Origin: Candidatus Saccharimonadota bacterium
Lineage (GTDB): Bacteria; Patescibacteriota; Gracilibacteria; BD1-5; UBA6164
Direction: 5' to 3'
Length of the DNA stretch: 32,000 bases
Assembly (NCBI GenBank): GCA_965227835.1
Contig: OZ245768.1
Span: forward strand, 540,001-572,000
In this document: in pieces, positions 3,001 through 31,176 of the stretch
How the letters are laid out: every line of letters starts with the position of its first letter
Position numbering within the stretch: position 1 is the first letter of the stretch
The notes under the pieces: generated by a model
Told to the model about the DNA's origin: nothing
Seen by the model: the letters and a program-made list of their open reading frames with translations, nothing else
The model's database searches: none
Position numbers and translations under genes: made by a program

Positions 3001-3039
3001 TCTATTTTCTATAAAATATTTTAAGATTTTATTTAACAT
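1..3039 (-). CDS. Heavy-metal-efflux type RND inner-membrane transporter (CusA/CzcA family). The C-terminus runs off the window start.
   Basis: ATG at 3039, with 1013 codons open to position 1 when TGA is sense. Motifs read: 'MTPWVGQTP', '[13 protein letters not shown]', '[22 protein letters not shown]' (the Gly codons at 1870-1872 and 1849-1851 are TGA) and '[17 protein letters not shown]'. Trp positions use TGG. The only long standard-code ORF here (1532..1729) is off-frame. Confidence 0.9.
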
Positions 3040-3044
3040 AATTT

Positions 3045-5435: not shown

Positions 5436-5502
5436 AATATTTGTTTTTATTAATTGTGAGTAATCTATTTATTTTTTTAAAAAAGTCAATTTTAGGATTT
5501 TT

Positions 5503-7530: not shown

Positions 7531-7556
7531 ATGTATTTCTATTTATAAAATGTAAA

Positions 7557-11155: not shown

Positions 11156-11368
11156 TTAAAATTCAGTTGTATTAATATTTAAAACTTTCTTAATTTTTAT
11201 TAATTTTAAATAAGTAATATTAGTTTCTCATCTTTCTACCATACTAATATAACTCCTATCAATTCATGTAGCTTCAGCTAGATCAAGCTGACTCATTCAA
11301 AGTTCTTTTCTTGTTTTTTGTAACTCTTTTCATAAACTCACTAATATTTCTTTATCTTTATTTTTCAT
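11039..11368 (-). CDS. XRE-family HTH (RM controller/C-protein-like) ORF that, as written, runs in frame into the first 18 codons of the adenine methyltransferase
   Basis: ATG at 11368. Sequence 'LGKELQKTRKELGMSQLDLAEATGIDRSYISMVERGETNITYL' has four TGA at canonical Gly positions. I checked codon by codon: 'GAA TTT TTA ATG' (11153-11164) gives no stop between the HTH and 'MRYIGSK'. The frame ends at TAG 11039-11041. Confidence 0.7.
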
Positions 11369-11372
11369 AATA

Positions 11373-11413
11373 AAAATTCTGAATATAATTTAGTAGAATA
11401 TATTCAGAATTTT
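11373..11413 (-). terminator. 15-bp perfect inverted repeat with an 11-nt loop, ending 4 nt upstream of the HTH ATG. It is a terminator of the lysis module and/or an operator.
   Basis: Plus strand reads aaaattctgaatata (11373-11387) and tatattcagaatttt (11399-11413). On the minus strand the stem is followed by T/A-rich 'tatt' and then ATG. Confidence 0.5.
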
Positions 11414-11442
11414 AAAAAAATCAACTGTATTATTTTTATGTT

Positions 11443-11955
11443 TTACCTCCTCTGATCATAAAGTGTAATTAATTCCTTTATATCAGCAATTAATGCAGGT
11501 CTATTATCAAGATAGTCATTAAATTTGAAACTATTTTCTAAATTTTCTTTTATAAATTTTCAAAATTTTGAATCTTCTAAAAATATATTTTTCTTATAAT
11601 CCTTACCGTTATCCTGAAAATGAGGCTTATCTGCTTTCCAAAGATCATAGCCCCAATCAATACTATATTTCTTTGCAACTTCAGCTATTTCTTTCCAACT
11701 ATAAATATCTTTTGGATAAAGTTCTTTTCATTTAAAAGCTATATCAATTGCTAATCACTGAGTATGATTAGATTTTAAAGTCCAAGTTACTTTTCTTCAC
11801 TTCCTAGTTCTTCAAAGAGAATATAAATAATTTTGTCTTTTTTGTGACCTATAACTTTCAGTAATAAATATTTTATCTCAAACTTCTTTTAAAAACAGTT
11901 CTACTTTTTTCCTGAATCTAGGATGTAATTTATCTAGTCATCTATATGTTTTCAT
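11443..11955 (-). CDS. Peptidase M15 family (VanY / L-Ala-D-Glu peptidase-like) phage endolysin (170 aa)
   Basis: ATG at 11955 and TAA at 11443-11445, 513 nt. Motifs: 'LHPRFRKKVELF', 'ITESYRSQKRQNYLYSLGRTRKGRKVTWTLKSNHTQGLAIDIAF' and 'YSIDWGYDLWKADKPHFQ'. Confidence 0.8.
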
Positions 11956-13846: not shown

Positions 13847-16063
13847 TTATCTGATTATTACATTAAAAGTACCAGCGGTTCAAGCTGTTCAATTTGTTCA
13901 AGCACTTCAAGGCTGTGGACTATATGATCCTGAAACAGTTCATCAAGCACCTCATGATCATCAAGCACCTCAACTACTTAATAAGTTATAGTTCGCACTA
14001 TCTAATCCACAGATAATAGCTCAACCTCCACCTCATCATCATCCTCATCAACCTCATCATCCTCAACCTCAACCTGCACCAGAATTTCATCATTTTCATC
14101 AACTTCAACCACTTGCTCATCTAATATCAATAGTTCAACTTCCTTTTATTTCTCAGGCTTTGATTATGATATTTCATCAGTTATTACCTAATTCTCATCA
14201 TGCTCATCAACCTCAACCTGCACCATTACTACATCAACCACTTCATCAAGCTGAAGTTCAACCTGAATTTTGAGTATATGTTCAGTTCCAATTAGCATTT
14301 CATCATGGATTTCAATAAGCATCTCATCAAGAATTACTACATGAACCATATCATCATAAACCTCATGGAAATCAACCAGCACCACCTGAACCTCAGCTTT
14401 GTGAATCAGCAGCACCTCAACCTCATCCTCAACCATACCCTCAAGGATCTCATGCTCATCAAGAAGCTCAAGCTAAGTATCAGTTTATACTATGACTACC
14501 TCAATTTCATCAAGCACCACCTGATCATCAATTTCATGGTGTTAAAGTAGATCAATTGAATAAAACAATATTTCAATTATTTCAGAGTCATACTACATTT
14601 ATAGTTCATTCAATATTACAAATCCTACTACAATTTAGCTCTAAAACTCAATCACTACCTGTTACTTGTAAGGTAGCTCAAGAAGCCACAGTAATACTTG
14701 AATAGTTATATATCCCAAATGCTAAATTATATGTTCATGATAAAACTTCTAGATCTCAATCTCATCAATTTCAATAAAAAAGATCTATTCATAAAGCACT
14801 GGAATCAAATGAGATTTCAGTTTCACTTATAGCTCTGAAATCATTTCAAGTTGTTAGGTTTCAGGTAGAAATATCATAGGTATAGTAGTTTCAAGTTACT
14901 AATCCTGTTTGGTGTTTATCATATCAGGTATTAACTTTCTTAAATTCTCATGCATTTCAATCAGCCTGAAGTATTCAAATAAAATTAGTTCATCAAGGAA
15001 TAATAAGTTTATATCATGGTATTTTTAAATACATATCTCAGCTTGCTCATTGCCAAGATATTCAATCATAAAGTAATGCTTGTCATATAAAATCTCAATT
15101 TGATATAGTTCTTCATATTTCATATCTATTAACATCTGAATAAGTTCATGTTCTTTTTACTACTATGTGATATAAAACTTCATTATCTAAATTACAAGCA
15201 GTAGAAAATGTAAAAGCTTTCTCAGTTAATGTTCAATTAAGTTCGGTATAATTGATTGTATTTGATGTTCAATTTGTAACTACAGTTCAACTAGGAACTC
15301 AAGCATTATCAGTTTGTATTTCTATATAAATTCAATCATCAGGACTTCAAACTGTTTTAAACATTAAATTAATAGTATCTATAGCTCATTGTCAGTATAT
15401 TTTTTGTCATACATAAGGTCTAGAATTACTACCAAAATACATATTATCATCATGATCAAGTTGTGAATAATCAACCAAACTCATTGCTTTTCAAACAGTA
15501 GTATTTTGACCTAGCATATAATTTAAACTTGCACTATTAACTTCAGCTTGTAATCAAGTAATATTACTTCAATCAAGAGCTGGAAGTTTTCAGTTTTCAT
15601 CTGTTTTTACTAATTGATTCACTCAATTAAAAATATTTCACATCTTTGTTACTGATGGATTTTTTAGATCTATAAATACTCTTTCATCTGTAATTACTCA
15701 AGAATCTATTGAAGCTAGTTTTATAAAATTACTAGTAGGATAACTACCAGCTGTTTTTATTTCTCAAATTCAGGTTCAACTTGAATTATTACTGATTCCA
15801 TCATCTACATTTGCTTGATTTATTTCTATAAAAACTTTTTTAGTTCAAGTTGTATCAATAACTACATCAGCTGTATTTTGAAATAATACAGGGAAAGTTT
15901 CTGAATCTCTAGTCACATCAATAAATCAGTAACCTGCTGTTACTTTTCAAGATTGCACTTCTAATCATTCAACTACTCAGGAACTAGCAAGTGATTTAAA
16001 AATTTTTGCTAGGTCATAGTCTTGGTTTATATTTTCTCAGTTTAATAAAGCTACTCTTTGCAT
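13847..16063 (-). CDS. Glycine-rich tail fibre / receptor-binding-type protein (738 aa). The C-terminal third is mostly Gly, and most of those Gly codons are TGA.
   Basis: I translated every codon from 13847 to 16069. There is no TAA/TAG between TAG 16067-16069 and TAA 13847-13849, and the first ATG is at 16063. The C-terminus contains 'GGSGGAGGNGG...GGYGGGGGGAADSQSGGSGGAGG...' and an 18-residue poly-Gly (14021-14074). Track ORF 14188..14436 is an off-frame artefact. Confidence 0.8.
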
Positions 16064-16083
16064 TAACTAGATATAAAAAAATA

Positions 16084-16128
16084 ACTGTAAAAATATTACA
16101 GTCATCTTTTTTCCCCTCAAGGTCTTTT
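16084..16128 (-). promoter_or_regulatory. Repeated intergenic element, copy 1: box AAAAGACCTTGAGGGGAA (16111-16128) plus a 7-bp hairpin (16084-16102) and T-run. It lies upstream of the fibre gene.
   Basis: The box overlaps the TAA of the upstream gene. The box end is 48 nt from ATG 16063. The spacing TTGAGG-N17-AATATT places the hexamer at the hairpin apex. Confidence 0.6.
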
Positions 16129-17155
16129 ATATCTCAAGGTTCTTGGTTCTATTTTTTAAATCTTGGATTGTTTCTATTAAATTTAAAGTCTTTATATTTC
16201 ATTTACTCAGCTTTATTTTTACTTTATTTAATTCTCATGATCTGAATTCTTTTTCTATTATTTTTAAATGAGAATCAAACTGCATAATATCATTTCAAGC
16301 ATCAATAAAAACTTTTACAGTATCTCATAAGTTTGCTACAAAAAAATCATAACTTAAAGGGGTAATTTCAAGTTCCCTTATGGAATCTTTTCTATCAGAT
16401 AACAGACTATCTTTATCTCATGAAATAAAATACTTTTCTTGTCTTCAAAACTCATTAATACTTGGCAAATCTTCACTGTTTCAGGTATCTTTTGATATTA
16501 CTGCATTACTAATATTTTCACTATCATATTCAAGCTTTGCTGTATCTATAGTTCTACTTCATGGGAAGTTTATATCATAAGAAAACTCTATAAAATTGGT
16601 TCAACTTGTTTTATCTTCTCATATGGAATTTAAAAAATATAAAATATTATTTCTTATTTCAAACTCATATCAATTCAAGGCTAGATCTTTTAAAATATCA
16701 AAAAATGTTTGTCATTTTTTATAGGTTTTAGTTACCTGATCTAGTATATCTGAATTCAATGTTATTCCAGTATCATATCTAGAATTTATTACATCTAGTA
16801 CATCTATTAATATAGATTTAATCTGAGTATTTGTATATGATTTATCAGTGTATAAAATCTTATTTTTTAGTAAAAATATCTTATCATTTAAAATTACTTT
16901 TGTTTTACTCAAATCAGCTTCTACTCCTCTTATAATTCCATCAAATATTAATTTTTCACTATTATTTTCTACCTTGTATATTAAAACTTCATTAAATTCT
17001 TTAAAATTATTATATGAGTTAGATTTATGAGTATTTGATACTTCAAAGCTAGCACTAGAAATATCATTTAATTTTTGTCTTACTTCTAGTTTATTTACCT
17101 CAAATATCTGAGTTTTTTTATTTCACTCATGATCATTTACATAAATTATAAACAT
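16127..17155 (-). CDS. Phage tail structural protein (Tal / prophage-tail N-terminal-domain-like), 342 aa
   Basis: ATG at 17155 overlaps the upstream stop (TAATG). In frame with track ORF 16712..16912, 1029 nt. N-terminus reads 'MFIIYVNDHEGNKKTQIFEVNKLEVRQKLNDISSASFEV'. Position is after Dit and before the fibre. Confidence 0.55.
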
Positions 17156-18027
17156 TATAAAAGTGAATTACGGAAATAAATATTTATTAAGAAATCATTA
17201 AATGGTATATTACCATCTTTATCCTCTATAAGCAGTTTTGTAGTTTCTAAAATTCTAATCCACATACTTCAAGCAATCCTGTTTGATAGAATATTTTCTC
17301 AATTTTTGGTTACTGTATAATTTTCTGAATCTATAACTATCTTATCTCAAGCTACTGCATCTATGTCTAGTCAGAAATATGTATTTTTTGTTAGATCTCT
17401 TATCATTAATGGTTTATTAATATCTCCACTTGCTGTTATTTCTATACGAGCTGGAGTATCTATATTTCAAGTAGTCGTACATTCTATAATGTTATCTATA
17501 TCACTAAATGGATTTGATAATTTATAAGAGAGTTTAAATCCTCAATAATTTCACTCAAGTGAGGTATTTAATATTTCATTTAAGCTCTTATATACTGGCT
17601 CTTTGGTACTTTCTAGAACTACTCTCCACTTCCAATAACTTCAAACAAAAGATTCATCTCACTCTACAATTTCAAGAGGTTCTTTTATTTTTACTTTCAA
17701 AGTCCACTCATTATCATACATATCTTTGATATATAATTCTTTTTCTTCTAGACTCACTAGACTTCATTGCAGTGCAAATATTTTTTGTAAATACTCGATA
17801 GAGTTTTGATCTTCTAAAGGATTTCAAATTCTATCACTGATTCACTCTAGAGTTATTATTCTTATCCTTGCATAAGTAGGACTTACATTCCTCCCATGTA
17901 TTCAATCTATATTTTCTGAATCATCACTTACTGTTAATTTTCTCCAATCCTTAAAAGTATAAATAATTCATGATTCATTATCTTTTAAAATATCTTCTCA
18001 GTTTAATTTTGCGATTTTAAAATCCAT
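17155..18027 (-). CDS. Distal tail protein (Dit, siphovirus tail component-like), 290 aa
   Basis: ATG at 18027 and TAA at 17155-17157, 873 nt. It lies immediately downstream of the tape measure gene. 'NIDTPARIEITASGDINKPLMIRDLTKNTYFGLDIDAVAGDKIVIDSENYTV' is typical of this family. Confidence 0.6.
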
Positions 18028-18036
18028 ATTTAAATA

Positions 18037-20937
18037 TTACATTCTAAATTTTAGCTTATCAAAGAATAGTTCTAAATCTATGCTATTTGCTACATTAATA
18101 TTTCATACATCTACCTTTTTTGAGTAATCATTTTGCACCGATCTTCCTTGTCTTATAAGTTCAAGTTCAGGAATTATATTTGGCATTTTTTGTATCATTT
18201 CTTGATTTAATACATATTCTCATTTATGCACTACTCATGCTACTTCATGCTTTGCTCAATCTCATGTATAACCTCACTCAGCAAATCAAGCAGAACTACT
18301 ATTTCTAAGTGCATTTAATCTTCTTTGAGCTGAAATAGCACTATTTACTTGAGATATAAGACTTTTATAAGATGTAGATAAACTTGCTACATTTTTATTC
18401 AATATAGATGTAGTCTTATTTGATAATAAAATAGTCGCTTTATTAATTTCTATTTGCAGTTCAATAGCTTCATCTTTTTGTCTTGTAAGAGCTTCTTTTT
18501 CTCTAGCTAGTTTAAGTATAACTTCTTGCTCCTCCTCAGATAGCCTTAAAAATCTTTCATCTTTTATGATAGTATCTATTTCTTTTTCAGTTATTCTTTT
18601 CTTTTCAGCAAAAAACTCATAAAATTGTTGTTTTCTTTCTAATGCTTCCTTTTCTGCATTCAACTCATTTTCTGCATCTATTTCTTTTTGGTTAGACTCG
18701 GATATTATTCTTTGTTTCTCTTTTTCCTGATCTATTAATATTTTTCATATTTCTGAAGCTTCATCATATTTTCTAAGTCTATCTAATACTTTCTGATCTA
18801 CTATTTCTTGAGCCTGAAGTTCTTCTTTTATCAGAGCATTTAACTCCTTTTGTAAAGCTATTTTTTCTTCAGCACTTTCAGTATCCTCTTTGATTTGCAA
18901 TTGAAGTTCTTGCTTTTCTTTTTCTATTTCAAGTAATCTTTCAGCTATTTTTTCCTGAGCTGAGTTATTATTTTCTCCAAGTCTTTCTTCTCTCTCTTGT
19001 TTAATAAGTTTAATGGTTTCCTCATATTTCTTTTTATTTTTATCTAAAGCATTATTTACTTTTCTGAGTCATATTTCAATTTCATCATTATATTTTTTGG
19101 TATTCTTTGCTAAGCTTTCACTTAATTTCTCAGATTCTTTTATTTTAGCATTATAATCTTTATAGCTATCTTCTAAGTCTTTCATATTATCTTTGATTTC
19201 TTGTGTTGCACCAGCTCATGCTTTTCACATATCTTTAGCTTTTCCTCAAACTTTTTCAAAGCTAGATCAAAGTCCATCAATGGTAGTATTTATTTTATCA
19301 AATACTCAGGTACTACTTTTACCTGTATCAGCTATATCTGTTTCATAGGCATCAATATTTTCTAGCATTCTATCAAATGCCTTAGAATTATTATTTTTGA
19401 TCTTATCCCATGAATCAGTCCAAGCTTTTTTTGTGTTTTCTAATCATTTACCATTTTTAAGTACTAACTCTTCCATTTCAGTATTTACTTCCTTTATTTG
19501 AGCTATGGTATTTCTACCTAGTAATTCTAAAAGTATATTTATCTTATCTATTGCTGAATTTATAATTCCTATTACAAAGTTAACTGATTTTTTACCTGCT
19601 AGCTGAACGATATTTAAGGCAGATCAGAAAAAATTACCAAGTCATGTTCCAAGTGTTTTTATAGCTCAGAAAATACTTCATAAAACTGTATTTATAACAA
19701 TATAAATAGCCTGAAAGCCATTTGATATTGCCATTGCTAAAAACTTAAATAATTTGAAATTATCTTGAACTTGTTTTTTATTTTCTCAGGTTAATATCTG
19801 GAATGCATCGGTTATTATTTCAAATACACTTGTAAAAATCCCTGCTATTGCTTTTCATATATTGATTACATTTGTTGCTATATCACTTCAAAAATCAATA
19901 ATAGAAGCCATATTATTTTGCAAAAAATTGTTTATAGTTCCTATAATTCACTTTAAAGTATCTGATATATTAAGTCACATCTTTGATCCTGCTATCTCTA
20001 CATTATCTACCAAATTACTCCACATACCTGTTAGAGTTTTAGCTTGTTTTTCCATACTTCAGGCAAATTTTTCATTTAATCCTGTAAGTATAGCATTTAC
20101 AGCTGTAGCTGAATCAATTCCTTGATTTCATAAATCTCAAAGCTGTGCCTTAGTAAGTCATAATTGCTCTTCCAAAACTTTAAAAATTGGCAAACCTCTC
20201 TCAGCCATTTGTAGTACCTCTTCAGTAGATAGTTTTCACTTAGCTTCTATTTGTCATAATGCTAGAATAACTCAGTTTAAATCATCTTGTCATCTACCTA
20301 CTGCACTTATTGAATCTCATAAAACTTTTACAGTAGCAAGAGCTTTTTCTCACTCAAATCAAAATCATATAAGTTGTTGTATTGATTTTGTTAAACCTAG
20401 TTTATTAAATGGAGTTTGAGATGCTAACTCATCTATATCTTGTAGCATCTGAAGTGCTTTTTGCTCACTTCAAAGCAAAGTTTCAAAACTTATTTTTGCT
20501 TGCTCTACTTCAGCTCCTAGTTTTGATATTCACTTTATAAAATTTCAAATAGCATAAACACTAAATGCTCATGCTATAGCTCATCAAATACCTTTAAAAA
20601 ATCATCATAGTTTTGATGTTTTATTTGTTACTTTGCCAAGTTCTTTTTCTGTTTTCTTTACTTCTTTTTGTAATTCTTTAAATCTCTTACTTCATATCTT
20701 AGTATCATCAAGTTCATTGTTTAAATTCTTTAGTTTAGAGTTTAATCATCATATAGTTTTCGTAGTTTTTTCTGATTCAGATTTTATTTCTTTTAATCAT
20801 TTTTTTCATGAGCTCCCTAACTCTTTTTCAATAGTATCTCATGCTTTTTGAAATTCATTTTTTATTTTTAAGGTAGAATTCTTTATACTATTTTCATCTA
20901 CTGATAATCAAACTCTTAGTTCTCATAGGTTAGACAT
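18037..20937 (-). CDS. Tail tape measure protein (TP901-type core), 966 aa
   Basis: ATG at 20937 and TAA at 18037-18039, 2901 nt, in frame with track ORF 18286..18663. Core sequence reads 'LASQTPFNKLGLTKSIQQLIGFGFEGEKALATVKVLGDSISAVGRGQDDLNGVILALGQIEAKGKLSTEEVLQMAERGLPIF', followed by TM-like segments and a long coiled coil. Confidence 0.9.
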
Positions 20938-21382
20938 TTTTCTTTATATTATTTTTTAAAGCAGTTAGTTTTTTCTTTGGATTTTTTCTATCTTTGTCAT
21001 ATTTTTCTTCTCAAGCTATAACTTTGATATCCTCTAGTAAATCATTGAATACTTTTAAAGGTGTAGCCATTGTTTGTCAGTAAGAATTACCAAAAAATTT
21101 CATAAAAAATCAGATCTTTATATGGAAATCTTTAAGAGGTTTTTCTTGTTTCTTTTTGGTATTTAGTAAGTTATCCAAGTCCTCAGATTCAATCTCAAAT
21201 AATTTTTGTATAAGCTGTTTCAATTGCTTTTCATCAAGTACAGGAATAGTAGGATTAAATTCTAGGAATATCTCTTCTATAAACTGTTCTATATCTGATA
21301 AAGCTAGGAAATATCCTCATACAGTCAGTTCTCAGACCCTATAGTCTTTATTTCAGTATTTCACTTTTATTTTTCTTCTCAT
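20930..21382 (-). CDS. Putative tail assembly chaperone (150 aa)
   Basis: ATG at 21382. The stop TAA at 20930-20932 overlaps the tape-measure ATG. N-terminus reads 'KYGNKDYRVGELTVGGYFLALSDIEQFIEEIF'. The call rests on position between the major tail and tape measure genes. Confidence 0.55.
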
Positions 21383-21391
21383 AGGCAATAA

Positions 21392-21448
21392 AAAAGATTT
21401 AATCTATAATTTAGACTAAATCTTTTAGTGTTCCTCTCAAGGTCTTTT
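21392..21448 (-). promoter_or_regulatory. Repeated element, copy 2: box AAAAGACCTTGAGAGGAA (21431-21448) plus a 10-bp hairpin (21392-21426)
   Basis: The box starts 3 nt after the upstream TAA. The box end is 49 nt from ATG 21382. TTGAGA-N17-AGTCTA places the hexamer in the hairpin loop. Confidence 0.6.
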
Positions 21449-21451
21449 ATT

Positions 21452-21715
21452 TTAGGAGAATTTATAAGTAAAATAACTAAGTAATCATATAATATCTTCT
21501 TTTAAAACTACTACGATGTCATTTTCTCTCTGAAGTAGCCTTTTAAATATTTTTATCCATGTTCAAATTAAATCTTTTTTTAAATCTATTACTTCTAGAG
21601 AATTTTTAAAATAAGTTTTATCAGCTTCACAGAAGCTATATTTATATTCTATTCCTCAAAGAGAAAATACATCAGTTTCTTGTTTCTTATATTTATTTAG
21701 ATCAAGAGTTTCCAT
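21452..21715 (-). CDS. Hypothetical protein (87 aa), possibly a second tail chaperone
   Basis: ATG at 21715 overlaps the major tail stop (TAATG). TAA at 21452-21454, 264 nt. Confidence 0.5.
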
Positions 21716-22482
21716 TAGCTAACTGCTTGTTCATCAAAAATTTCAAAGATATTATTGTTACCATCAGGATATCCTATAAATTCTACTGGAATACTTGCTA
21801 CTGACTCAAGATCATCATCTTCAGGGAAATCAAAAGCAAGATTGCTTGTTGCATAACCTTTATAGATTTTGATACCGAATTTTTTACCATTTTCATCAGT
21901 ATTTTCAAATGTAACTTCATATAGATTAAGAGCCTTAAGTACATCTTTATAAATCACAGCTTTTGAAACATTAGGAGTGTAAGTATATGTTACTGTAATT
22001 TCTCCAGCTTGTGCTGATTTAAATAAAATATATGTTTCTCCTAGTTCTCAATTTTCTCCATCTCAAACATAAGTTGAATATGATGTAGACGTAACTGTAG
22101 TTCCATCAGCTTTTACATTTGTAATAGTGATAATACTATCATCTCCATTCTTATTATTAAGCTTAAAAGGAGTATAAGCTATACCAACTGCTCAGTAAAC
22201 TTCATCTGTTACTGTTGTAGGTATTCCTGCTGTATTTACTAAATCTCCGATTCCATCTACTTTTGCAATGTTATCTAAAAATAATTCAGCAAGTTCAGCA
22301 TTAAATTTAACCTGATCTATCTTTTTTCTTGGTGGTAGTTTAGAGTTAGCAAATTTTAATTGAGCTATCAAGAATGACACTTCTAGTCATGCTCATTTCA
22401 ATGCTCATACATTTACTCCATCTAATTTCAGAATACCATTTCACATTCTGATAGAATCAGATCTTTGCACTGGTGTTTGCAT
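21715..22482 (-). CDS. Major tail protein (255 aa)
   Basis: ATG at 22482. Track ORFs 22192..22380 and 21715..21957 are in the same frame, joined through TGA, 768 nt. The protein is beta-rich with an acidic C-terminus. Position is upstream of the chaperone and tape measure genes. Confidence 0.65.
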
Positions 22483-22502
22483 ATTTTATATTGGTTAAAA
22501 AA

Positions 22503-22551
22503 ATAATACCTGTATAAACTACAAGTATTATTTTTCCCCTCAAGGTCATTT
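22503..22551 (-). promoter_or_regulatory. Repeated element, copy 3: box AAATGACCTTGAGGGGAA (22534-22551) plus an imperfect 13-bp hairpin (22503-22533) and T-run
   Basis: The box starts 4 nt after the upstream TAA. The box end is 52 nt from ATG 22482. The spacing is TTGAGG-N17-AGTTTA. Confidence 0.6.
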
Positions 22552-22555
22552 CAGT

Positions 22556-22966
22556 TTAGAATTTCTGATCTTTAAATACAAATTTAAAAGTAAGAGGTTT
22601 ACGAAATAAATTCTTTTCAGGATTAGACATATCAGGTCATACATTTACAAGTTGTGACTTTACTCCATCATCTTTTGATCTATTAAATAATCAAACTACT
22701 AGATCCTTTATTTCTTCAAACTCTTCCATATTTGTTGCCCAAACATCTATTTGAAAGGAATCTTTTCTTATTCATAGATTATTTGTACTTCATCATACAT
22801 GACTATAGCTTATAAAAGGTCTATCAGTTCCTTTTATACTTTCAAGATCTCTACATATAACATTTTCAGGTCATCAAATTTTTTGTATTAAATTTACATA
22901 ATTTGTGAGTCTATCATATATGTATTTTCTTATATCTATAAATCATAATTCACTATGTTCTATCAT
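22556..22966 (-). CDS. Tail completion / head-tail joining protein (DUF3168-like), 136 aa
   Basis: ATG at 22966 and TAA at 22556-22558, 411 nt. Contains 'RPFISYSHV...FQIDVWATNMEEFEEIKDLV'. Confidence 0.5.
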
Positions 22967-23406
22967 GAGTATTTTTTTAATAATTTACTAAAGTTACCTT
23001 TTAATATTTGAGTAAGCTCTTTTTCATTATCATTAAGTCATTGTCTTAAATAACTTCTTTCTTCTATATCATCAGTTCAGAACTCTAAGGCTCTTCAATA
23101 TTCCTCAGTTATTCACTGGTTTACTCCAACAACATATCTTCATTCTCAAATTTTCTCCATTCAAATACTTCTTTTCAAGTTTCATGTAACTCACTCATAC
23201 CAATGACCATCTATTTGTACTGGTTTATAATGACTACTTCTCTCAGGAGCTTTTCAATCTTTTCTATCAATATTATTTTTCGGTAATCTATCTTTATCTC
23301 TCGGAGTTATTTCTCTTACTTTGGAAACAAGAATATTTGATGTAATCAAGACTGATTCATCTATACTTCTTTTTAACACCTGAGTATTCAAACTAAATTC
23401 AGCCAT
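22960..23406 (-). CDS. HK97 gp10-like head-tail protein (148 aa)
   Basis: ATG at 23406. TAG at 22960-22962 overlaps the next ATG. Contains 'KVREITPRDKDRLP...VVGVNQGITEEYGRALEFGT'. Confidence 0.5.
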
Positions 23407-23410
23407 AGTA

Positions 23411-23761
23411 TTAGTTTATAAATCTTAAAATACTTTTATTATGGTCGTGTTTCTTATTCATATAGACCCTTTCTACAAATATAACTTCAAAAGTATTTGT
23501 TTCTTGCAAGACTTTATCTCATTTTTTAGGCAGAGTATCAGTTTTACAATATAATTCGTATTCCTTAGATGTAAAACCTAATTGTCATGCACTATCAAGA
23601 CTATCATCATTTATGGATTTTCATCTCTCTAAAATTATTCACTTAAATAAAATCTGAGTCGAAGAGTCTTTCACTTTCTCTCAATACTTATTCAGACCTT
23701 TAGTAATACTTTCCAGAGTAATATCTTGAAAGGCAAAGCCAAAATTATCTATAAAAGCCAT
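23411..23761 (-). CDS. Putative head closure / head-tail adaptor protein (116 aa)
   Basis: ATG at 23761 and TAA at 23411-23413, 351 nt. The call rests on size and position between the connector and gp10-like genes. Confidence 0.45.
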
Positions 23762-23768
23762 AAATTTT

Positions 23769-24362
23769 TTAAATTATTCATTTAAAAGATTTATACTTTG
23801 AAATTATCATATCGAAGTTTTGTTTAATAGCTATATTAAATCTATCTTTAATGTTAGATTCTCTCTCAGACTCTCAAAAGTAAGTTACAGAAAGGCTTCC
23901 GAGCTTCTGAGTTTTTATATTTTTATTCTCTAAACTCTCGCTATTATCTCCACTTATTCATAAATCGATTGATAAATTAATGCATAAATCTAAACTCATT
24001 TTCTCTATGTCAGAAGGAACTGTATCAAATCAAATATTATACTTAATTTCTATATTTTTCTTTCATTTTCTAGTCTTTTCTTCTAAATATAGTATATAAT
24101 TATCTATATAATCTACAGTGTAGTTATAAGACTCATTTTTAAGCTTTATATATTCAATATTATTAGCTTTGTGATCTAAGTATATCTTATTACTTCAAGT
24201 TCCATCTACTCTTGCAATTATATCTTGTTTTCATAAGTTATATCATATTTTGGAGTCTATCATATTTGTAGCTTGCTCTATAATTAAAAGAAGCTTTGAA
24301 TCACTACTATTATCAGTAATTCAAAGCTTATCTTTTAAGCTACTTAAAGTAGTATAATTCAT
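23769..24362 (-). CDS. gp6-like head-tail connector protein (197 aa)
   Basis: ATG at 24362 and TAA at 23769-23771, 594 nt. The N-terminus 'LSSLKDKLGITDNSSDSKLLLIIEQATNMI' is typical of this family. Confidence 0.55.
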
Positions 24363-24368
24363 TGTTTG

Positions 24369-24779
24369 TTATATTAATCAATTATCTGTAGCTAAATTTT
24401 TAAGTTCCTCATCTGTTTTTCATTCTAGTTCTGATTCATCTAATATTCACTCATTAACTAATAGTTCTCAGTAATTTGTAGTATCTGAATCTGTATTATC
24501 AGTTATTTTTCCTGATTCAAGTTCATCTACTAACTTATTCAGTTCAGCAACTTTCAATTTTTTATCATACTCTACTCAAGCATGATCTAGAATTTCTCTA
24601 CATTCTTTTCAAGTTCTCTGATTATCATTTTTTACTATATTTTTCTTTTCAATCTTTTCTTTTACTACTGAAAATCAAGCTTGTAAGTAATCATCTAGTT
24701 TTGATTTATCTATATCTAAGATTTGTCATTTCTTAGCTCAGTTATAGATCCTATTTTTATTATTTATAACTCTAACCAT
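24369..24779 (-). CDS. Hypothetical acidic protein (136 aa) downstream of the capsid gene
   Basis: ATG at 24779 and TAA at 24369-24371, 411 nt, open under code 25. Confidence 0.5.
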
Positions 24780-24798
24780 ATTAAATTTATATTAAAAA

Positions 24799-26010
24799 TT
24801 AAGTTGTTTTATTATTTTTAACAAGCACTGTAGCTTCAGGATTTTCTATTAAAATATCTAGTTTCATTTTATACCAGAAATTATATCCATCAGGTGCAAC
24901 TCTTTCAGGTTCAAGTTTTAAGTCAGTTTGGATTCAGATAATTACATTTTTAGGATTCGTTCCTATAATATCAGCACCATCTAAGATTACTTTATCAACT
25001 TTCATTCCAGCTTCTATATCATAGATTAATGGTGTAGTTGTTGTAATAGAATTTGCATCTATAGAAGCTACTATATAAGTCATTTGTGTAGCATTACCAT
25101 AATCTACAGTTATACTATCTCCAGCACTTATACTTCATGTTAAATCAGTATCTATAAATATACCTAAAGTTCATGCATTTTGTGGATTCGTGATATTAGC
25201 TGAAACTCATGTTTTTACAGGATTTTCATTTATCATCAATGATACTTCATTGATTTTAGTTCCTGCAATTCTATTCTTATTAGTTTCTCCATCTCATCTA
25301 TTACCATTTGGATCATTATATAATTCATCTAAATCTATTTGAGTATCAGGATCATGGAAGAATTCTATTTCTTTTTTATATTTATTTGCTAAAGCCTTTT
25401 TAGCTTGAACATATTTTTTTCTTGTAATATCTCTACCTGTAAACACATTCGTATCTGATCCATCTAGTACATTACCATCTTTTTCAATTTGGTATTTAAT
25501 ACCATCAAACATATTTAATATTCAATTATCAGCTGATGGAGTATCTACTTTTCTACCATATATTGCAGTTTCTACTAATTCATTAGCAATCTTTTTAGCA
25601 ATAATTCTTTTCATATGTTCTTCAAAGCTTTTTCACTCGATGTTATCATCAATTTCATCATCTGATAAGTAAAAGAATCACTCTACTTTCTTTGAGCTTA
25701 AGAAAATTGAATCAGTTTGAACTTTATATCATGCTTTACCTGTTTGACCATGAGTTCTTTTACCAGCACCTCAAGGCATTAAAAATTTTCAAGGAGCAAT
25801 TAATTTTGCAATCTCTTTTGTTGGTCATGTCATTGTGATCACTCTGAATTTTTTCAGTAATCAATCTGATTCATCTTTTACATAATCAATAAATTGTTTA
25901 GCTTCATCATTTTTCCAATGAAAATTTACAGGAACTCAGTTTGAATCTAAAGTGAAAGCCTTTTTTAGATCCTCTGTTTTTTGAGTTCTTTTCTTTAGTT
26001 GTATAGGCAT
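24799..26010 (-). CDS. Major capsid protein (HK97-fold type), 403 aa
   Basis: ATG at 26010 and TAA at 24799-24801, 1212 nt, in frame with track ORF 25294..25512. The call rests on position after the scaffold gene, on size, and on the C-terminal 'PDGYNFWYKMKLDILIENPEA'. Confidence 0.75.
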
Positions 26011-26033
26011 TTTTTACTAAATTATAATATAAA

Positions 26034-26450
26034 TTAATCTATTTTTGAGATCCTTTGATCTTTTAAAACTTTTTCTATACTTTCAACTCTATCAATTGTA
26101 GAATCAAGAGCATCAGATACTGTTTTATCATCTTCTTCTTTTTCTTTTTTAATTTTTTCTATATCTCCTGTTAATTCTTTAAGTTGTCACATAAAATTTG
26201 TTACATCATCAGAAGATAAATACATATCCACATATTTTTTGATAGCTTCTTTTCAATCATCTGACTCAAAAAACTTTTTAATATCTTTTTCGGAAGTAGT
26301 TTCAGTTTCATCTTCTACCTCTTTAGAAAGTTTAGCTTTCATTTCAGAAGCCTCTTCAAATTTCTTAATTGCTTCCTCTGATTTATCTTCTTTTAATAGA
26401 GATATACCATCAGAAAAAACTCCAAAAAATTTTTCTAGTAGTTCTTTCAT
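26034..26450 (-). CDS. Scaffolding protein (138 aa, acidic coiled coil)
   Basis: ATG at 26450 (the Met internal to track ORF 26253..26513, whose upstream extension crosses the repeat box). Continues through TGA to TAA 26034-26036, 417 nt. Confidence 0.65.
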
Positions 26451-26494
26451 ATAAATAAATTTAAAATATAAACAATTACAGACTAGTTTCTTTA

Positions 26495-26674
26495 TTATTC
26501 CCCTCAAGGTCATTTCAAATTGGATAGAATCTTATTAAGTCTTTCTTTGTTTTTATTTTTCTTTACTGTTTTAAATAATGCGAATTTATTCTCAGCTTGC
26601 TCTACTGCAGGTGTATTATCTTTTGTTACTAAACTAATTCCATCTACAAACACATTTTTTATATCTCTAGGCAT
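26495..26674 (-). CDS. Small ORF (59 aa) resembling the N-terminal 'ISLV..AN...FAI.K' segment of XkdF-type proteins
   Basis: ATG at 26674. Sequence 'MPRDIKNVFVDGISLVTKDNTPAVEQAENKFALFKTVKK...LKGPGGE', with TAA at 26495-26497, 180 nt. Confidence 0.45.
26498..26515 (-). promoter_or_regulatory. Repeated element, copy 4: box AAATGACCTTGAGGGGAA. The downstream hairpin is weak.
   Basis: The box end is 48 nt from ATG 26450. The spacing is TTGAGG-N17-AGTCTG. The box lies inside the last codons of the 59-aa ORF because no TAA/TAG precedes it. Confidence 0.55.
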
Positions 26675-26684
26675 CTTATTTTTA

Positions 26685-27053
26685 TTAAACTATAAAATAT
26701 CACTCCATTGATACTCAAACAAAATCTCAGGCTTTTACACTTTTGTATAATTCATTATCTAAGAACTTAACTCATACATACCAACTTCATTTTTTCACAA
26801 TAGTTTCTCAAACTATTATGTCATTTGGAGCTATAAAATTTTCTACAAATTGATATTTTGTTTTTTCTATTTCAGTATTTTCTTCATGATCCACATTTAA
26901 AAATTTGTTTTGCATATTAGCACCAAAATCATGAGCTGTTTTTATAATCTCTTCAGAAGTTATTACATCTCAGTTTCTATCTTCAATATCAGGTGTTAAA
27001 ATACAAAAACTCACAGTTTTATGGATATCATCTGTTTTTAGTAGTCTTATCAT
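26685..27053 (-). CDS. XkdF-like putative phage serine protease domain protein (122 aa)
   Basis: ATG at 27053 and TAA at 26685-26687, 369 nt. Sequence 'ILTPDIEDRNGDVITSEEIIKTAHDFGANMQNKFLNVDHEEN...ENFIAPNDIIVGETIVKKGSWYVGVKFLDNELYKSVKAGDFVGVSMEG'. Confidence 0.65.
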
Positions 27054-27076
27054 TGCAGATTTTTAGAAAATAAAAA

Positions 27077-27124
27077 AACACTACTTTTAGTTTAGTAGTG
27101 TTTTGATTCTCTTTAAGGTCTTTT
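27077..27124 (-). promoter_or_regulatory. Repeated element, copy 5 (most divergent): box AAAAGACCTTAAAGAGAA (27107-27124) plus a 9-bp hairpin (27077-27102) and a 7-nt T-run
   Basis: The box overlaps the TAA of the MuF-like gene. The box end is 54 nt from ATG 27053. TTAAAG-N17-AAACTA places the hexamer in the hairpin loop. Confidence 0.6.
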
Positions 27125-27890
27125 AGTCTATCACTCAACTATCAGGATTAACAATACTATAATCAGTATAACATCTACAGTTAAATCAATGAGGTGCATG
27201 ATCTGTATTAGTTCATGGAAATAGTTTATTTTTAGCTATCCATCAAGCATTTTCATTTTCTATATGACTTTCTCTAGCATTACTATCTCATTGAGTAATA
27301 CTTCTTTTATATCAAGTTACTCCAAAATTTTTAGTATATTCATCATGCTGTTTTCTTGATCAGTATTCGTATGCATTTCATACTTCCATTACTGCTATTA
27401 AGCTTGATCTATATGTTGAATACTTTAAAAACTTATCATCAATCTTTTTAGCAATTTCCCCCAGAGTATCTCATTTAGATATTCAATACTCTATAATTTT
27501 TCAAATCTCTTCTCTAGTTGTTTCATCTATTTCAGATATCATTTCTCAGGCTCTTTTTTCTGCATACTCTAATTGATATTCATTACTGATTCAGATATCT
27601 AAACTAAGTCATATATTTTCTAATTCTAACTTACTTTTTTGCTCTTGCTCTAATTGTCAGAGTAAAACTATAGCTGAAAGTTTTTCTATTAATTCTTTAT
27701 TAATTTTTGGATCATTAGCTTTTTTAATATCCTTGTTATCTTTTAGTTCATCAATGTATTTTTTAGCTTCATTTTGAAAGTATTTATTGAAATAGTCTAT
27801 AAAATCATAGAAGTAATTCATAAACTCTTTTGATTTTACTTTTTCAAAATCATCTATTATTTTTTTTACTAATTTTATTTGTTTTTTCAT
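27123..27890 (-). CDS. Minor head / head morphogenesis protein (SPP1 gp7 / Mu F-like), 255 aa
   Basis: Track ORF 27657..27890 continues through TGA. C-terminus reads 'ITQGDSNARESHIENENAGWIAKNKLFPGTNTDHAPHGFNCRCY'. TAA at 27123-27125, 768 nt. Confidence 0.8.
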
Positions 27891-29146
27891 ATTCAGATTT
27901 TATTTAAAAATTTTCACCATTTTGAGTAACTTTTTTCTAGACTTTTTTCTACTTCATCTAATTCCATATCTTCTTTATTGTCAAATTCACTTCATCATGA
28001 TGTTAAAAGTTCATCTCATCAAGGTAATGGATCAAGTCAAAGTGATTCTCTTTGCTCATTAGCAGTAGTAATACCTGCTTTCTTGTATCAAACTGCTATT
28101 TTCATTTCATCTACTCAATTTTTCAAATCTACTTTATTAAAATCAATCTCGTTTATTTCCTCAATAGATATTTCTTTTAAAACTATATCATCTTCCTTTG
28201 CTTTTTTCCAAGATAAAAGTTGAGCTTTTAGTTGTCTTAGTATTTTTCACTGCAAGGGAATAATTATATCAGCATATAAACTCTCTAGAGCTACATTACT
28301 CGTAGCTTTATTTGAGTTTTTCGAGGATAACAAATCAAAAGGAATATTAGTTGATATAGCTATATCTTCTTTTAATTCTCTTTTAAGTGCTATAAATTTA
28401 TCAGGATCTATTCTTGTTGATAGATCTATTTTTCCTATTTTTCAAGTTAGAAATAAAGTATTATGAGAATTATCTATTCCTGATATTTTATCTTTTATCA
28501 TCTCTTCAATCTTTTCTACTTGCTCAGTTGTTAGATTTCAAAGTTCATCATATAGAATATTTGGTTCTATATTTCATCACTTAAAAAAGTTCTTATAGTA
28601 TTTAGTTATAAAAGCTAAAAGTACTACTTCATCAATACAAGAATGGAATAAACTATCTCAATAATGTTTATCTCCAAGTGATCATCTTTTGAAAAATAAC
28701 ACTTCATCATTGGAAAAAGGAACTTTTTTAATTCACTTCTTAGACCTTTGATAATATGCTACTTTTTTGTTGTTTTTAGAAGACTTTCTGATTGTAGGAG
28801 TCAGAATTGTATCAAATTCTAGTAAACTCTCTTTATTCCCATTTTTTAGTCTTTCTGAGAAAGAATTTCAAAAAGTAAGTAGGTTTTGAGCTATAATATC
28901 AATATCCAAGTTATCTAGCAGGTTATCTAGCTCCTCATTATCTGTTCTTATAAATCAGCTATCTACTTTTGATGAAATTTTCTTAATAATTCAAGATATA
29001 ATAGAACTATTATCATAAGCATATAATAATTCATCAAATCATACTTCAGGTTCTATTACTCAATCATTAGAGCTGAATAGTTCATCAGATCTATCATCTA
29101 TCTGTTTTGATACTCACGTTTTAAATAATTTTATTTTATCTGACAT
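27875..29146 (-). CDS. Portal protein (423 aa)
   Basis: ATG at 29146 and TAA at 27875-27877, 1272 nt. It overlaps the MuF-like start by 16 nt. Contains 'YYQRSKKGIKKVPFSNDEVLFFKRGSLGDKHYGDSLFHSCIDEVVLLAFITKYYKNFFKGGNIEPNILY'. Position is between the terminase and head genes. Confidence 0.75.
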
Positions 29147-29164
29147 AATTTTTAGCAAAAAAAT

Positions 29165-29213
29165 AAAGACTAGATTTAGTATCTAATCTTTATCTTTCCC
29201 CTCAAGGTCTTTT
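29165..29213 (-). promoter_or_regulatory. Repeated element, copy 6: box AAAAGACCTTGAGGGGAA (29196-29213) plus an 11-bp hairpin with one mismatch (29165-29191) and T-run
   Basis: The box end is 50 nt from the portal ATG 29146. The spacing is TTGAGG-N17-ATACTA. The box lies inside the last 8 codons of the tandem-HTH ORF. Confidence 0.6.
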
Positions 29214-29690
29214 ATGAAGGTTTCTATTTAACTCAATTATATCATGCAGGCTTGCAACATACCATCTAATTTGGTTTCATTCAGGTTCTGAGAAACCATA
29301 TAATTTTAAAAGCTCTCTTAGATAATATGAATTAAACTTTGGTGCTACATCTCAAGCTTCTATCCTTGTAATCTCTCTTTCAGTTCACTTAATCATCTTT
29401 GCTACTTCTTTTTTTGATAGTTTAAGTTTCTCTCTTCTAGTTTTAAGTAAATTTCATAGTACACTTTCATCACTCTTTAACCATTTTTTCATATTTTCAC
29501 TATAAAATTTATCTTTTTTCAACTCGAAGAATTCATACAAGGTATCGAGAGTTTGAGCTGTATATTTTTTGTTTCTATGTCAGTTCTTAATTGAGTAAAT
29601 AGCCTTACATCATATTCAAGTTTCTTGTCTTAGCTTTTTCATATTATTTTTTTCAAGAAACTCTTTAATTCTTTGTTGTATTAAACTCAT
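29190..29690 (-). CDS. Tandem XRE-type HTH DNA-binding protein (166 aa) between the terminase and portal genes
   Basis: ATG at 29690 and TAA at 29190-29192, 501 nt. HTH 1 reads 'LRQETGIGCKAIYSIKNGHRN'. HTH 2 reads 'LKLSKKEVAKMIKGTEREITRIEAGDVAP', with TGA at the E-x-G glycine. Confidence 0.7.
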
Positions 29691-29700
29691 ATTACACAAA

Positions 29701-31176
29701 TTAAAAAGCTCTAATCTCTCATCAAGCAAATGGTGTAAAACTAAAAACCATACTATCTACCATATCATCATGTTCTCATCATGGGAAAGCAAGCAGTTGA
29801 TTTTCTAAACTTCAAACCTTTTTACTATCTGAACTAAATTTTATAAGTCATCTTTCAAATTCTCATTGGAATTCTCTAAGTCTTGTGACTTTATCTTTTT
29901 CTGAATTAATAACTATTACTGCTAATCATCTCTTTTTTAACATCCTAGCAAGAATAAGTCATCAGTTATTTTGCTCTATATAAATCAAAGAGCATTTGTA
30001 TTTGTTATACAGTTCTACCACACTATTACAGAATTTATCCTCATCTTTATCAGTTCACTCAAATGCTATTGATTCAAGTATATACTTGTGAATTTCTCAA
30101 GTGTATTTTTCTTGAGCTGTTATTGTTAATCACATTGCATCTGTTCAAGTTTTTTCTGAAAAAGCAGGATCTATTCAAAATACTATTTTATAACTCTTAG
30201 GTAGCTTATAAAAATACTTTATATCTGATCTTTTAATTATGCTTTGACCATTCTTGTAAGGGATTAAATTAAAGTTTTGATTATAAGCTATTAATCAATC
30301 TCTTCTTTTTGTCTGCAGAGAAATAAACTTATAAGCATCATCTCTGATGTTTTTATTTTTTTCTCTAGCTTCTTTATCAGTAGAAACGAATCTACTCCAA
30401 CTAATATTTCATTTGATCCTGATAGGTATCCAATAAATTTTAAAATCCTTGTTAGATTCAAAAAATTTCTTTAATCTTGGAATCCTACCATCTTCATTAA
30501 TAACATTTCATAGGAATATTTTTTGTGCAAACGAATTTAATCATCCAAATACTTCTCAAGTCAGGAATCTCATATCAGCTTCAATCAGCTCGGAGTTCTT
30601 AGTGTTTTTATTTGTATCTATATCATCAAATCATACTAAGTCAGGTCTATGAGTTCTTCCATCTCTTCATAAAAACTTCTTTCATCTAGGACTTTTTCAA
30701 ATACTCATTGCTTGAACCTTTATATTTCAATCTATCATAAATTCTCAGATTGTTTTCTTTGTTGGTTCATTTTGTTTTCTTCATTCAGGAGGAATGTATA
30801 AGTGTCAAAAGTCATGTATTAATAATTCATTTGTTTGAAGAATAACTATTATATCAAGTAGCATAGCTTTTGCTTGCTCTATCTCTGAGTTATAATGCAT
30901 TATATATCTTCTTTTCTTATATACGATACAATAAACATAATAGTAAGTTAAAAACATTGTTTTAGCACATTCTCTAAATCAAACAAAAAATATATTTATC
31001 ATATTTTGTAAGTCATCACAGTAGTCTTTATGAAACTGAGCAAGTGCATGACTAAACTCATTTGGGAAATAATACAGACAAAAAGATAGAAAATCTCATT
31101 TAAAATATTCTTTTCTCAAAAATGTTTTATCAATATTTGTAAAAAGATATTCTAGTAGTTCTCCATCTCTCTCCAT
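29701..31176 (-). CDS. terL: Terminase large subunit (491 aa)
   Basis: ATG at 31176 directly follows the TerS TAG. TAA at 29701-29703, 1476 nt. Motifs: 'FFVGFRECAKT' (P-loop region), 'RPDLVGFDDIDT' (Walker B), and the nuclease motifs 'FGIDPAFSEKTGTDAMGL' and 'AFPGGEHDDMVDSMVF'. Confidence 0.85.

Follow-up and report, generated by a model that had tools for sequence, protein, structure and literature searches.

What is the role of the six short, similar elements that punctuate the phage structural genes in the 32,000-nt stretch analysed here (the window; positions 540,001–572,000 of contig OZ245768.1, from a Candidatus Saccharimonadota bacterium)? Each has an 18-nt box, in five cases accompanied by a hairpin and a run of T, and the initial annotation offered three possibilities: (a) phage late promoters, each overlapping with the terminator of the unit before it, (b) nut-like antitermination or RNA-processing sites, and (c) binding sites for a tandem helix-turn-helix (HTH) protein encoded just upstream of copy 6. 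The first is the best supported, once the -10 hexamer is re-registered to 16 nt after the -35 hexamer, and judging from the sequence each element is probably a composite of a late promoter and an intrinsic terminator, located among the structural (late) genes of a temperate siphovirus integrated in a candidate-phyla bacterium with genetic code 25 (TGA = Gly).

The minus strand, which is the coding strand for all window genes, carries AAAWGACCTTGAGGGGAA in five exact copies and one degenerate copy, in intergenic gaps or in the tails of open reading frames (ORFs). The six positions first reported were confirmed, with five exact matches to AAAWGACCTTRARRGRAA against 0.01 expected from shuffled sequence. 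The sixth box (27107–27124) reads AAAAGACCTTAAAGAGAA and has 3 mismatches within the 14-nt core; it is regarded as real because it is orthologous to AAAAGACCTTTCAGGGAA in related phages, every one of which has a box at this site. The predicted promoters, with the copies numbered from 1 at the fibre gene to 6 at the portal gene, are:

29178–29213, minus strand: copy 6 promoter, before the portal gene; box 29196–29213, -35 TTGAGG 29200–29205, 16-nt spacer, -10 GATACT 29178–29183.
27089–27124, minus strand: copy 5 promoter, before the XkdF-like protease gene; degenerate box 27107–27124 with TTAAAG at -35, -10 TAAACT 27089–27094.
26480–26515, minus strand: copy 4 promoter, before the scaffold gene; box 26498–26515, -10 TAGTCT 26480–26485, without a credible hairpin.
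22516–22551, minus strand: copy 3 promoter, before the major tail gene; box 22534–22551, -10 TAGTTT 22516–22521.
21413–21448, minus strand: copy 2 promoter, before the 150-aa gene preceding the tape measure gene; box 21431–21448 (TTGAGA), -10 TAGTCT 21413–21418.
16093–16128, minus strand: copy 1 promoter, before the Gly-rich fibre gene; box 16111–16128, -10 TAATAT 16093–16098.

The distances from box to ATG, 48, 49, 52, 48, 54 and 50 nt for copies 1 to 6, were reproduced. The boxes had been described as starting 0–4 nt past a stop codon in four cases and lying inside an ORF tail in two. Copies 2 and 3 start 3 and 4 nt past the stop, copies 4 and 6 are inside an ORF, and the boxes of copies 1 and 5 share their first two A's with the upstream TAA. 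Box 4 is translated as the tail of a conserved 59-aa ORF (...KGPGGE*) and box 6, in the same frame, as the tail of the HTH ORF (...KRPGGER*), and in some relatives the HTH stop lies ahead of the box. The partial duplicate GAACCTTGAGAT noted at 16131–16142 is present, but it is coding sequence (...KNLEI*) whose synonymous positions vary in relatives, so the resemblance to a box is due to chance. Every intergenic gap above 40 nt in the structural module holds a box, and GAC[CA]TTG was not found elsewhere on the minus strand of this module.

One line of evidence for a promoter comes from the second hexamer. It had been placed 17 nt after the TTGAGG-like hexamer, and the sequences listed for that position are indeed there, but the better register is at 16 nt (N16), where copies 1 to 6 read TAATAT, TAGTCT, TAGTTT, TAGTCT, TAAACT and GATACT. 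The re-registered pattern is then TTGAGG, TTGAGA or TTAAAG, a spacer of 16 nt and a -10 hexamer, with nAnnnT in 6/6 window copies and TAnnnT in five, GATACT being the other, and TTGAGG-N16-TAnnnT is in its sequence a sigma-70-type -35/-10 pair. The earlier view of the hexamer as a loop fixed at the hairpin apex is better replaced by that of a -10 element which happens to sit at the junction of the 5' arm and the loop. In the close clade, consisting of ten IMG/VR contigs and UBA6164 with 76–96% nucleotide identity to the window, TAnnnT is found at N16 in 31 of 45 distinct copies and nAnnnT in 37, other offsets being at or near background. At orthologous sites the -10 changes at positions 3–5 only, e.g. 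TAGTCT/TAATCT/TATTCT, and this includes GATACT/GATAAT at copy 6; copy 3 orthologues have TAGTTT/TAATCT, and those of copy 5 combine AAAAGACCTTTCAGGGAA with TAAACT/TAGACT/TAAAAT. A generic promoter scan of the window was uninformative in DNA of 27% G+C (120 found, 132 expected).

More distant phages, with 28–35% identity in the major capsid protein (MCP), were collected by an MCP-profile search, and most of them have in-frame TGA in the MCP gene. Their intergenic regions contain AAAGACATTG(A/T)AA, usually straight after the stop codon, and by sequence comparison the window box is a clade-specific variant of this widespread element, the contrasted variants of different clades being AAAAGACCTTGAGGGGAA and AAAGACATTGAAA. 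All 33 occurrences of AGACATTG[AT] in these relatives are on the gene strand, with 0 on the opposite strand. Sense and antisense box counts were 76/2, 37/1 and 33/0. TAnnnT stands at N16 in 16 of the 33 distinct copies, against a background of 2.8%, and A2 together with T6 (nAnnnT) in 27 (82%), against 12.4%, at this single offset, while in the information profile downstream of the box only hexamer positions 2 and 6 stand out. The distance from -10 to ATG is 28–38 nt in most copies. Recoding varies even among box-bearing phages whose HTH proteins are 73–76% identical: the MCP genes of L243 and L244 contain three in-frame TGA codons each, those of L238 and L240 (about 40% G+C) none.

Conservation in related phages, which the annotation had named as a check, was found: the box is kept at orthologous sites also in phages with about 30% protein identity, implying selection on its function. 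This bears on the idea that the repeats persist mainly as recombination linkers, in the manner of the shuffling sites formed by promoter-early stem-loops (PeSLs), and that the box has no present regulatory role. Relatives (L226, L227, L229–L232) do in fact have variable cassettes of 0.16–2.4 kb that directly adjoin boxes 3 and 5 on the upstream side, inserted precisely between the preceding stop codon and the box at points corresponding to window 22555–22557 and 27123–27125. They hold a 130-aa gene, four genes (2.4 kb) or membrane-protein-like genes, some on the opposite strand; however, they bring TTGACA-type promoters of their own and have a box at one end only, and with the conservation just described this makes recombination linkers a very improbable explanation.

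A search of viral contigs with the 14-mer GACCTTGAGGGGAA gave more than 118 matches, mostly single and random, and an 18-mer was used for this reason. The genome scan returned 84 stretches, of which 82 were single matches on unrelated contigs and the other two were on DIUG01000019.1; one genome contig only, a prophage, contains the 18-mer. One relative sits on a contig of 'Patescibacteria group bacterium UBA6164'. L223 and L224, found as TerS relatives, use the standard code and were set aside as unrelated to the box.

The spacing of 16 nt is shared with promoters of the host type. In the upstream regions of 131.5 kb of related recoded host-type contigs (L303–L317, found via an efflux-pump protein), TTGA-N16-TAnnnT was counted 16 times, where shuffles gave 3.1. 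Enrichment at other spacings does not come close: N14 ranks second and is mildly enriched (7 against 3.2), and N17 and N18 are not enriched. Host-type promoters of the recoded lineage seem to keep strictly to a spacer of 16 nt. Their -35 hexamers are TTGACA, TTGACT or TTGATT, and AGAC precedes 0 of the 17 host promoter examples listed. The annotation had also asked whether the motif is equally frequent elsewhere; in host-like DNA, GAC[AC]TTG was counted only 6 times over the two strands together (263 kb of strand sequence). Since the N16 spacing is common to both, the phage box is predicted to use the host promoter geometry; in composition it is this geometry plus a phage-specific AGAC(A/C) and minus the host's C at -35 position 5, which would be the usual look of an activator-dependent promoter. 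Two host-type promoters are located in the window itself, at 5436–5502 and 11369–11442. The latter (minus strand, downstream of the lysin gene) is a box-less cassette laid out in the same way as the six, with TTGATT-N16-TATATT, its -10 lying in the 5' arm of a 15-bp hairpin with a T-run (z -3.96). It precedes the 70-aa HTH_3 gene that heads a two-methyltransferase cluster, and could alternatively be a controller-protein operator.

Several other recognition signals were considered and discarded. An ECF-sigma promoter, with GACCTT as a GAACTT-like -35 and GTCTA as -10, would have a spacing of about 22–23 nt. A sigma-54 promoter is not indicated, there being no GG-N10-GC pattern, and the N16 -10 signal argues against it, as it does against a T7-like single-subunit promoter. 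In L219, moreover, visual inspection of the ORFs in the 10 kb before TerS, with no family search, showed no RNA polymerase or sigma factor gene. A split Shine-Dalgarno sequence, with GAGG brought near the ATG by the hairpin, would still have a folded distance of about 24 nt, and boxes exist without hairpins. The palindrome CCTnnAGG in the box is not retained in the AGACATTGAAA variants.

Five of the six copies have a hairpin with a T-run, as originally proposed, with folding energies of -12 to -18 kcal/mol, z-scores of -3.7 to -6.7 against dinucleotide shuffles and runs of 6–7 T. In copy 4, before the scaffold gene, no significant fold was found (z = -0.08). The putative terminators are:

29157–29194, minus strand: copy 6 terminator; hairpin 29162–29194 and T7 29157–29163, -18.1 kcal/mol, z -6.3; predicted end of the TerS-TerL-HTH unit.
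27072–27104, minus strand: copy 5 terminator; hairpin 27075–27104 and T-run 27072–27078, -12.0 kcal/mol, z -3.7.
22497–22533, minus strand: copy 3 terminator; hairpin 22501–22533 and T7 22497–22503, -17.3 kcal/mol, z -6.2.
21390–21426, minus strand: copy 2 terminator; hairpin 21392–21426 and T6 21390–21395, -13.8 kcal/mol, z -5.7.
16075–16110, minus strand: copy 1 terminator; hairpin 16076–16110 and T7 16075–16081, -15.7 kcal/mol, z -6.7.

Because of G.U pairs, four of the five hairpins are more stable in the sense than in the antisense direction (-18.1 vs -9.1 in copy 6, -17.3 vs -10.7 in copy 3, -15.7 vs -6.3 in copy 1 and -13.8 vs -11.3 kcal/mol in copy 2). Substitutions in orthologous hairpins are U-A to U.G or C-G to U.G with pairing kept, and in copy 6 of relatives a change from U.G to C-G. 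In distant phages the stem sequences at orthologous sites are unrelated, yet the hairpin and T-run are retained, and these structures would be intrinsic terminators with AT-rich stems that act on coding-strand RNA arriving from upstream. The covariation claimed for the stems was not borne out to the same degree, as it is weak within the close clade, where changes are mostly one-sided and of the G.U type with 0–1 compensatory pairs per orthologous site. When the tail and fibre hairpins are aligned jointly, three compensatory pairs are seen; the hairpins of the fibre (16076–16110) and major-tail (22501–22533) cassettes align around a common CTGTA...TACAG core, and this core with its three pairs suggests that the two cassettes are paralogous duplicates.

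A box directly 5' of an RNA hairpin, at a near-constant distance in the window clade, and with G.U pairs as an RNA-strand signature in the hairpin, might also be expected of an RNA-level element, in which the transcribed box is bound by a protein that modifies RNA polymerase or directs cleavage beside the hairpin, in nut-like antitermination or as a processing or stability site. In many relatives, however, the box has no hairpin, follows the hairpin or lies 40 nt from the ATG. It stands alone at 10616 in L248 and 13188 in L245, downstream of a terminator at 7689 in L243 and 1543 in L241, and upstream of one at 1510 and 6079 in L242, 11493 in L243 and 14392 in L245, while at 5032 in L243 and 8656 in L259 the box itself is the 5' arm; since it occurs without, before, after or inside terminator hairpins, box and hairpin are separable. 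The loops are unconserved and U-runs are present, Rfam gave no matches, and six sites per operon are unlike nut. The conserved A and T at exactly N16 have no RNA rationale and equal the host promoter spacing, making them a DNA promoter signature. Possibility (b) is thus unsupported, and an RNA-level role is quite unlikely.

The protein that might read the box is suggested by its surroundings. Dependence on a phage factor is suggested because AGAC is phage-specific and the -35 hexamer lacks the host's C at position 5. The product of 29190–29690 matches Pfam HTH_19, HTH_31 and HTH_3 and the PHROG category 'transcriptional regulator', and the order TerL-HTH-(box)-portal is conserved. An HTH gene is present in every box-bearing phage in which the TerL-portal region is covered, and the first box lies 4–31 nt past the end of the HTH match in 9/10 box-bearing contigs outside the close clade for which the two positions are available; in the tenth, L259, it is ahead of the portal gene about 700 nt downstream of the HTH gene. 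Among 50 MCP-related loci with at least 6 kb upstream of the MCP gene covered, 14 have HTH gene and box, 1 has the HTH gene with a weak box score, 0 have the box only and 35 have neither, so that relatives without the HTH gene are also without the box. Possibility (c) is compatible with (a) and has circumstantial support from adjacency and co-occurrence, and the tandem-HTH protein may be put forward, more cautiously than the promoters themselves, as a candidate activator.

The same adjacency and co-occurrence would fit a box that is an operator only, where the tandem-HTH protein or a different regulator of the phage binds and represses or blocks transcription, among ordinary terminators and with an incidental N16 hexamer. 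The box (about 13–18 nt) exceeds a -35 hexamer in length and is absent from host-like DNA, as such an operator might be. Yet the N16 TAnnnT signal is too sharp for an incidental hexamer, the larger gaps of the structural module all carry a box just before the start codon at a promoter-like distance, and without it the units behind strong hairpin and U-run signals would have no promoter candidate; the operator-only explanation is unlikely.

If each element is a composite of promoter and terminator, the following course is expected. Transcripts arriving from upstream would extend across the box and, once the hairpin has formed, end in the U-run. The 18-nt box would be the -35 region, with AGAC(C/A) directly before TTGnnn and TAnnnT exactly 16 nt further on, and RNA polymerase at this promoter should start about 7 nt past the -10. 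The predicted starts, 29171, 27082, 26473, 22509, 21406 and 16086, are all in the loop or 3' arm, because the -10 lies at the junction of 5' arm and loop, and the new transcripts would lack the 5' arm of the hairpin, so that the terminator could not form. They should begin with a U-rich leader of 23–29 nt without a Shine-Dalgarno sequence; the leaders of the window copies are U/A-rich and no GGAGG-like motif was found in them. The resulting units would be portal/Mu-F, protease, scaffold to the tail-terminator-like gene, major tail, chaperone/tape measure/Dit, and fibre/lysis. The 10 kb preceding TerS contain no box, and an early/replication-TerS-TerL-HTH unit should for this reason end at the copy 6 terminator; the HTH gene is the final one ahead of this terminator, and its product would activate the promoters at the boxes.

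In four phages a hairpin-less copy precedes the same 126-aa gene with the -10 exactly 8 nt ahead of the ATG, which implies a leaderless mRNA. Some first in-frame ATGs in relatives lie within or 1–3 nt from the predicted -10 (10286 in L243, 8656 in L259, 8891 and 11821 in L248, 5969 in L232); if the promoter assignment is right these cannot be true starts, and a downstream ATG fits better. It is tempting to extend the scheme to a hitherto undescribed late regulon common to a family of siphoviruses of TGA-recoded candidate-phyla bacteria and their relatives, in which the HTH protein, the product of the final gene in the terminase operon, binds AAAGAC(A/C)TTG over a weak -35 and activates 5–8 structural promoters, several of them inside preceding terminators and at least one leaderless, but this is a tentative proposal in which doubt somewhat outweighs belief.

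Some observations weigh against the composite promoter-terminator. The -35 hexamers are poor (TTGAGG, TTAAAG, TTTCAG), and copy 5 does not even keep TTG, so recognition may rest on AGACCTT and not on the -35 hexamer. Most orthologous copies are non-independent observations. Compensatory changes are almost absent from the orthologous hairpins (0 and 1 in two orthologous sets), and the stems are AT-rich with 2–3 G-C pairs each, short of the G+C-rich stem that is a criterion for an intrinsic terminator, although this criterion may not transfer to a genome of 26.7% G+C. A generic terminator scan that required three G-C pairs detected, among the cassettes, copy 5 only. The co-occurrence of HTH gene and box is confounded by phylogeny, the HTH-positive phages being the closer MCP relatives.

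With table 11 the window, of 26.7% G+C, gives short ORFs only; reading TGA as sense yields 30.4 kb of minus-strand ORFs, with 569 in-frame TGA in 10,354 codons. These are found in glycine contexts, e.g. GxGxG fibre repeats and methyltransferase motifs, which indicates code 25, and the fibre gene by itself has 120 within its Gly-rich repeats. The gene content, from Pfam and PHROG matches, is in order of transcription:

29701–31176, minus strand: TerL, preceded by TerS (minus strand).
29190–29690, minus strand: tandem XRE-HTH gene, 166 aa, the last gene ahead of the first box.
27875–29146, minus strand: portal; a Mu-F-like protein is next in order.
26685–27053, minus strand: XkdF-like protease.
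26495–26674, minus strand: 59-aa ORF between the XkdF-like protease and scaffold genes.
ATG at 26450, minus strand: scaffold gene.
24799–26010, minus strand: MCP.
23769–24362, minus strand: head-tail adaptor, then Neck1-like and tail-terminator-like proteins.
21715–22482, minus strand: major tail, then two small chaperone-position genes.
18037–20937, minus strand: tape measure, then Dit and a 342-aa tail protein.
13847–16063, minus strand: Gly-rich fibre, then small genes and SNase.
11443–11955, minus strand: M15 lysin, followed by the HTH/two-methyltransferase cluster.
10122–11156 and 8978–10117, minus strand: DNA methyltransferases, D12 class and N6_N4_Mtase respectively.
1–4886, minus strand: AcrB/HlyD-type efflux genes.

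Dit, tape measure, Mu-F and XkdF are siphovirus markers. Upstream of TerS, relatives have genes for a serine integrase, an ImmA-like protein, an XRE-type repressor, RecT and an exonuclease (translations read by eye, no family search), indicating a temperate siphovirus. Beside the two DNA methyltransferases, ORFs of 675 and 465 aa (5503–8954) have no Pfam match and may supply the nuclease or the specificity function in a restriction or defence system. The generic terminator scan also flagged a 16-bp hairpin (AAGCTTTGAATTACTG...) at 24291–24329 (minus strand), within the head-tail adaptor gene and towards its 5' end. Rfam and tRNA scans of the window gave no matches.

To our knowledge, there is no experimental information on promoters, terminators or phage gene regulation in the uncultured bacteria of the Gracilibacteria/Absconditabacteria type. 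The host-type promoter, TTGAnn-N16-TAnnnT with its strict 16-nt spacer, can now be defined at the sequence level and offers a first view of transcription signals there, and next to it a phage-specific promoter class is defined for which a candidate regulator is proposed. The box should be a simple marker for transcription-unit boundaries and true start codons in recoded phages, and could correct start calls. As a design principle, a terminator and the next promoter can occupy the same 60 nt. We found no earlier description of the motif in the literature, but the elements most likely represent a known type of arrangement in a little-studied phage group, and the conceptual novelty is limited because the components are ordinary and the composite layout has a precedent in the PeSLs.

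PeSLs are found in T4-type phages (Arbiol et al. 2010, PMC2839356; Comeau et al. 2014, PMC4122927), and consist of a stop codon, an A/T-rich stretch and sigma-70-like -35 and -10 hexamers, together with a stem-loop, placed between these hexamers or over the -10, by which transcription from upstream is attenuated (PMC2839356). They are also associated with indels (PMC2839356). Both PeSLs and the cassettes described here are intergenic composites that start at the upstream stop and combine an A/T-rich stretch and a sigma-70-like -35/-10 pair with a stem-loop, mostly between -35 and -10 or over the -10, that terminates or attenuates transcription from upstream; both occur in many copies on a single strand and show accessory-gene indels between close relatives. 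There is no sequence similarity between them, and PeSLs are early promoters with the host sigma-70 consensus in hyperplastic regions of large lytic myoviruses, whereas the present cassettes, with a phage-specific AGAC(C/A)TTG box and a weak -35, belong to the structural module of a small temperate siphovirus. PeSLs also end with a Shine-Dalgarno sequence, which is missing here, and flank variable ORFans on both sides, in contrast to the box on one side only.

The lambda nut site (boxA + boxB) is similar in that a conserved linear box is followed by a hairpin on the transcribed strand. It differs from the present elements in that these have U-runs, unconserved loops, hairpin-less boxes in relatives, six copies per operon and a DNA-level -10 signal at N16, with neither an N-like gene identified nor an Rfam match.

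Phage promoters that depend on an activator and have a class-specific box around -35 are known from the T4 middle promoters (MotA box), Mu Mor/C and P2 Ogr. Compared with these, the TTG of the -35 is kept in most copies here, and the 166-aa HTH protein, which matches generic Pfam HTH families only and in these matches shows no homology to MotA, Mor/C or Ogr, is a candidate activator. The likeness consists in a good -10 together with a conserved phage-specific box that replaces or flanks a poor -35, in the repetition of the box before several gene clusters, and in a phage DNA-binding protein as the presumed reader.

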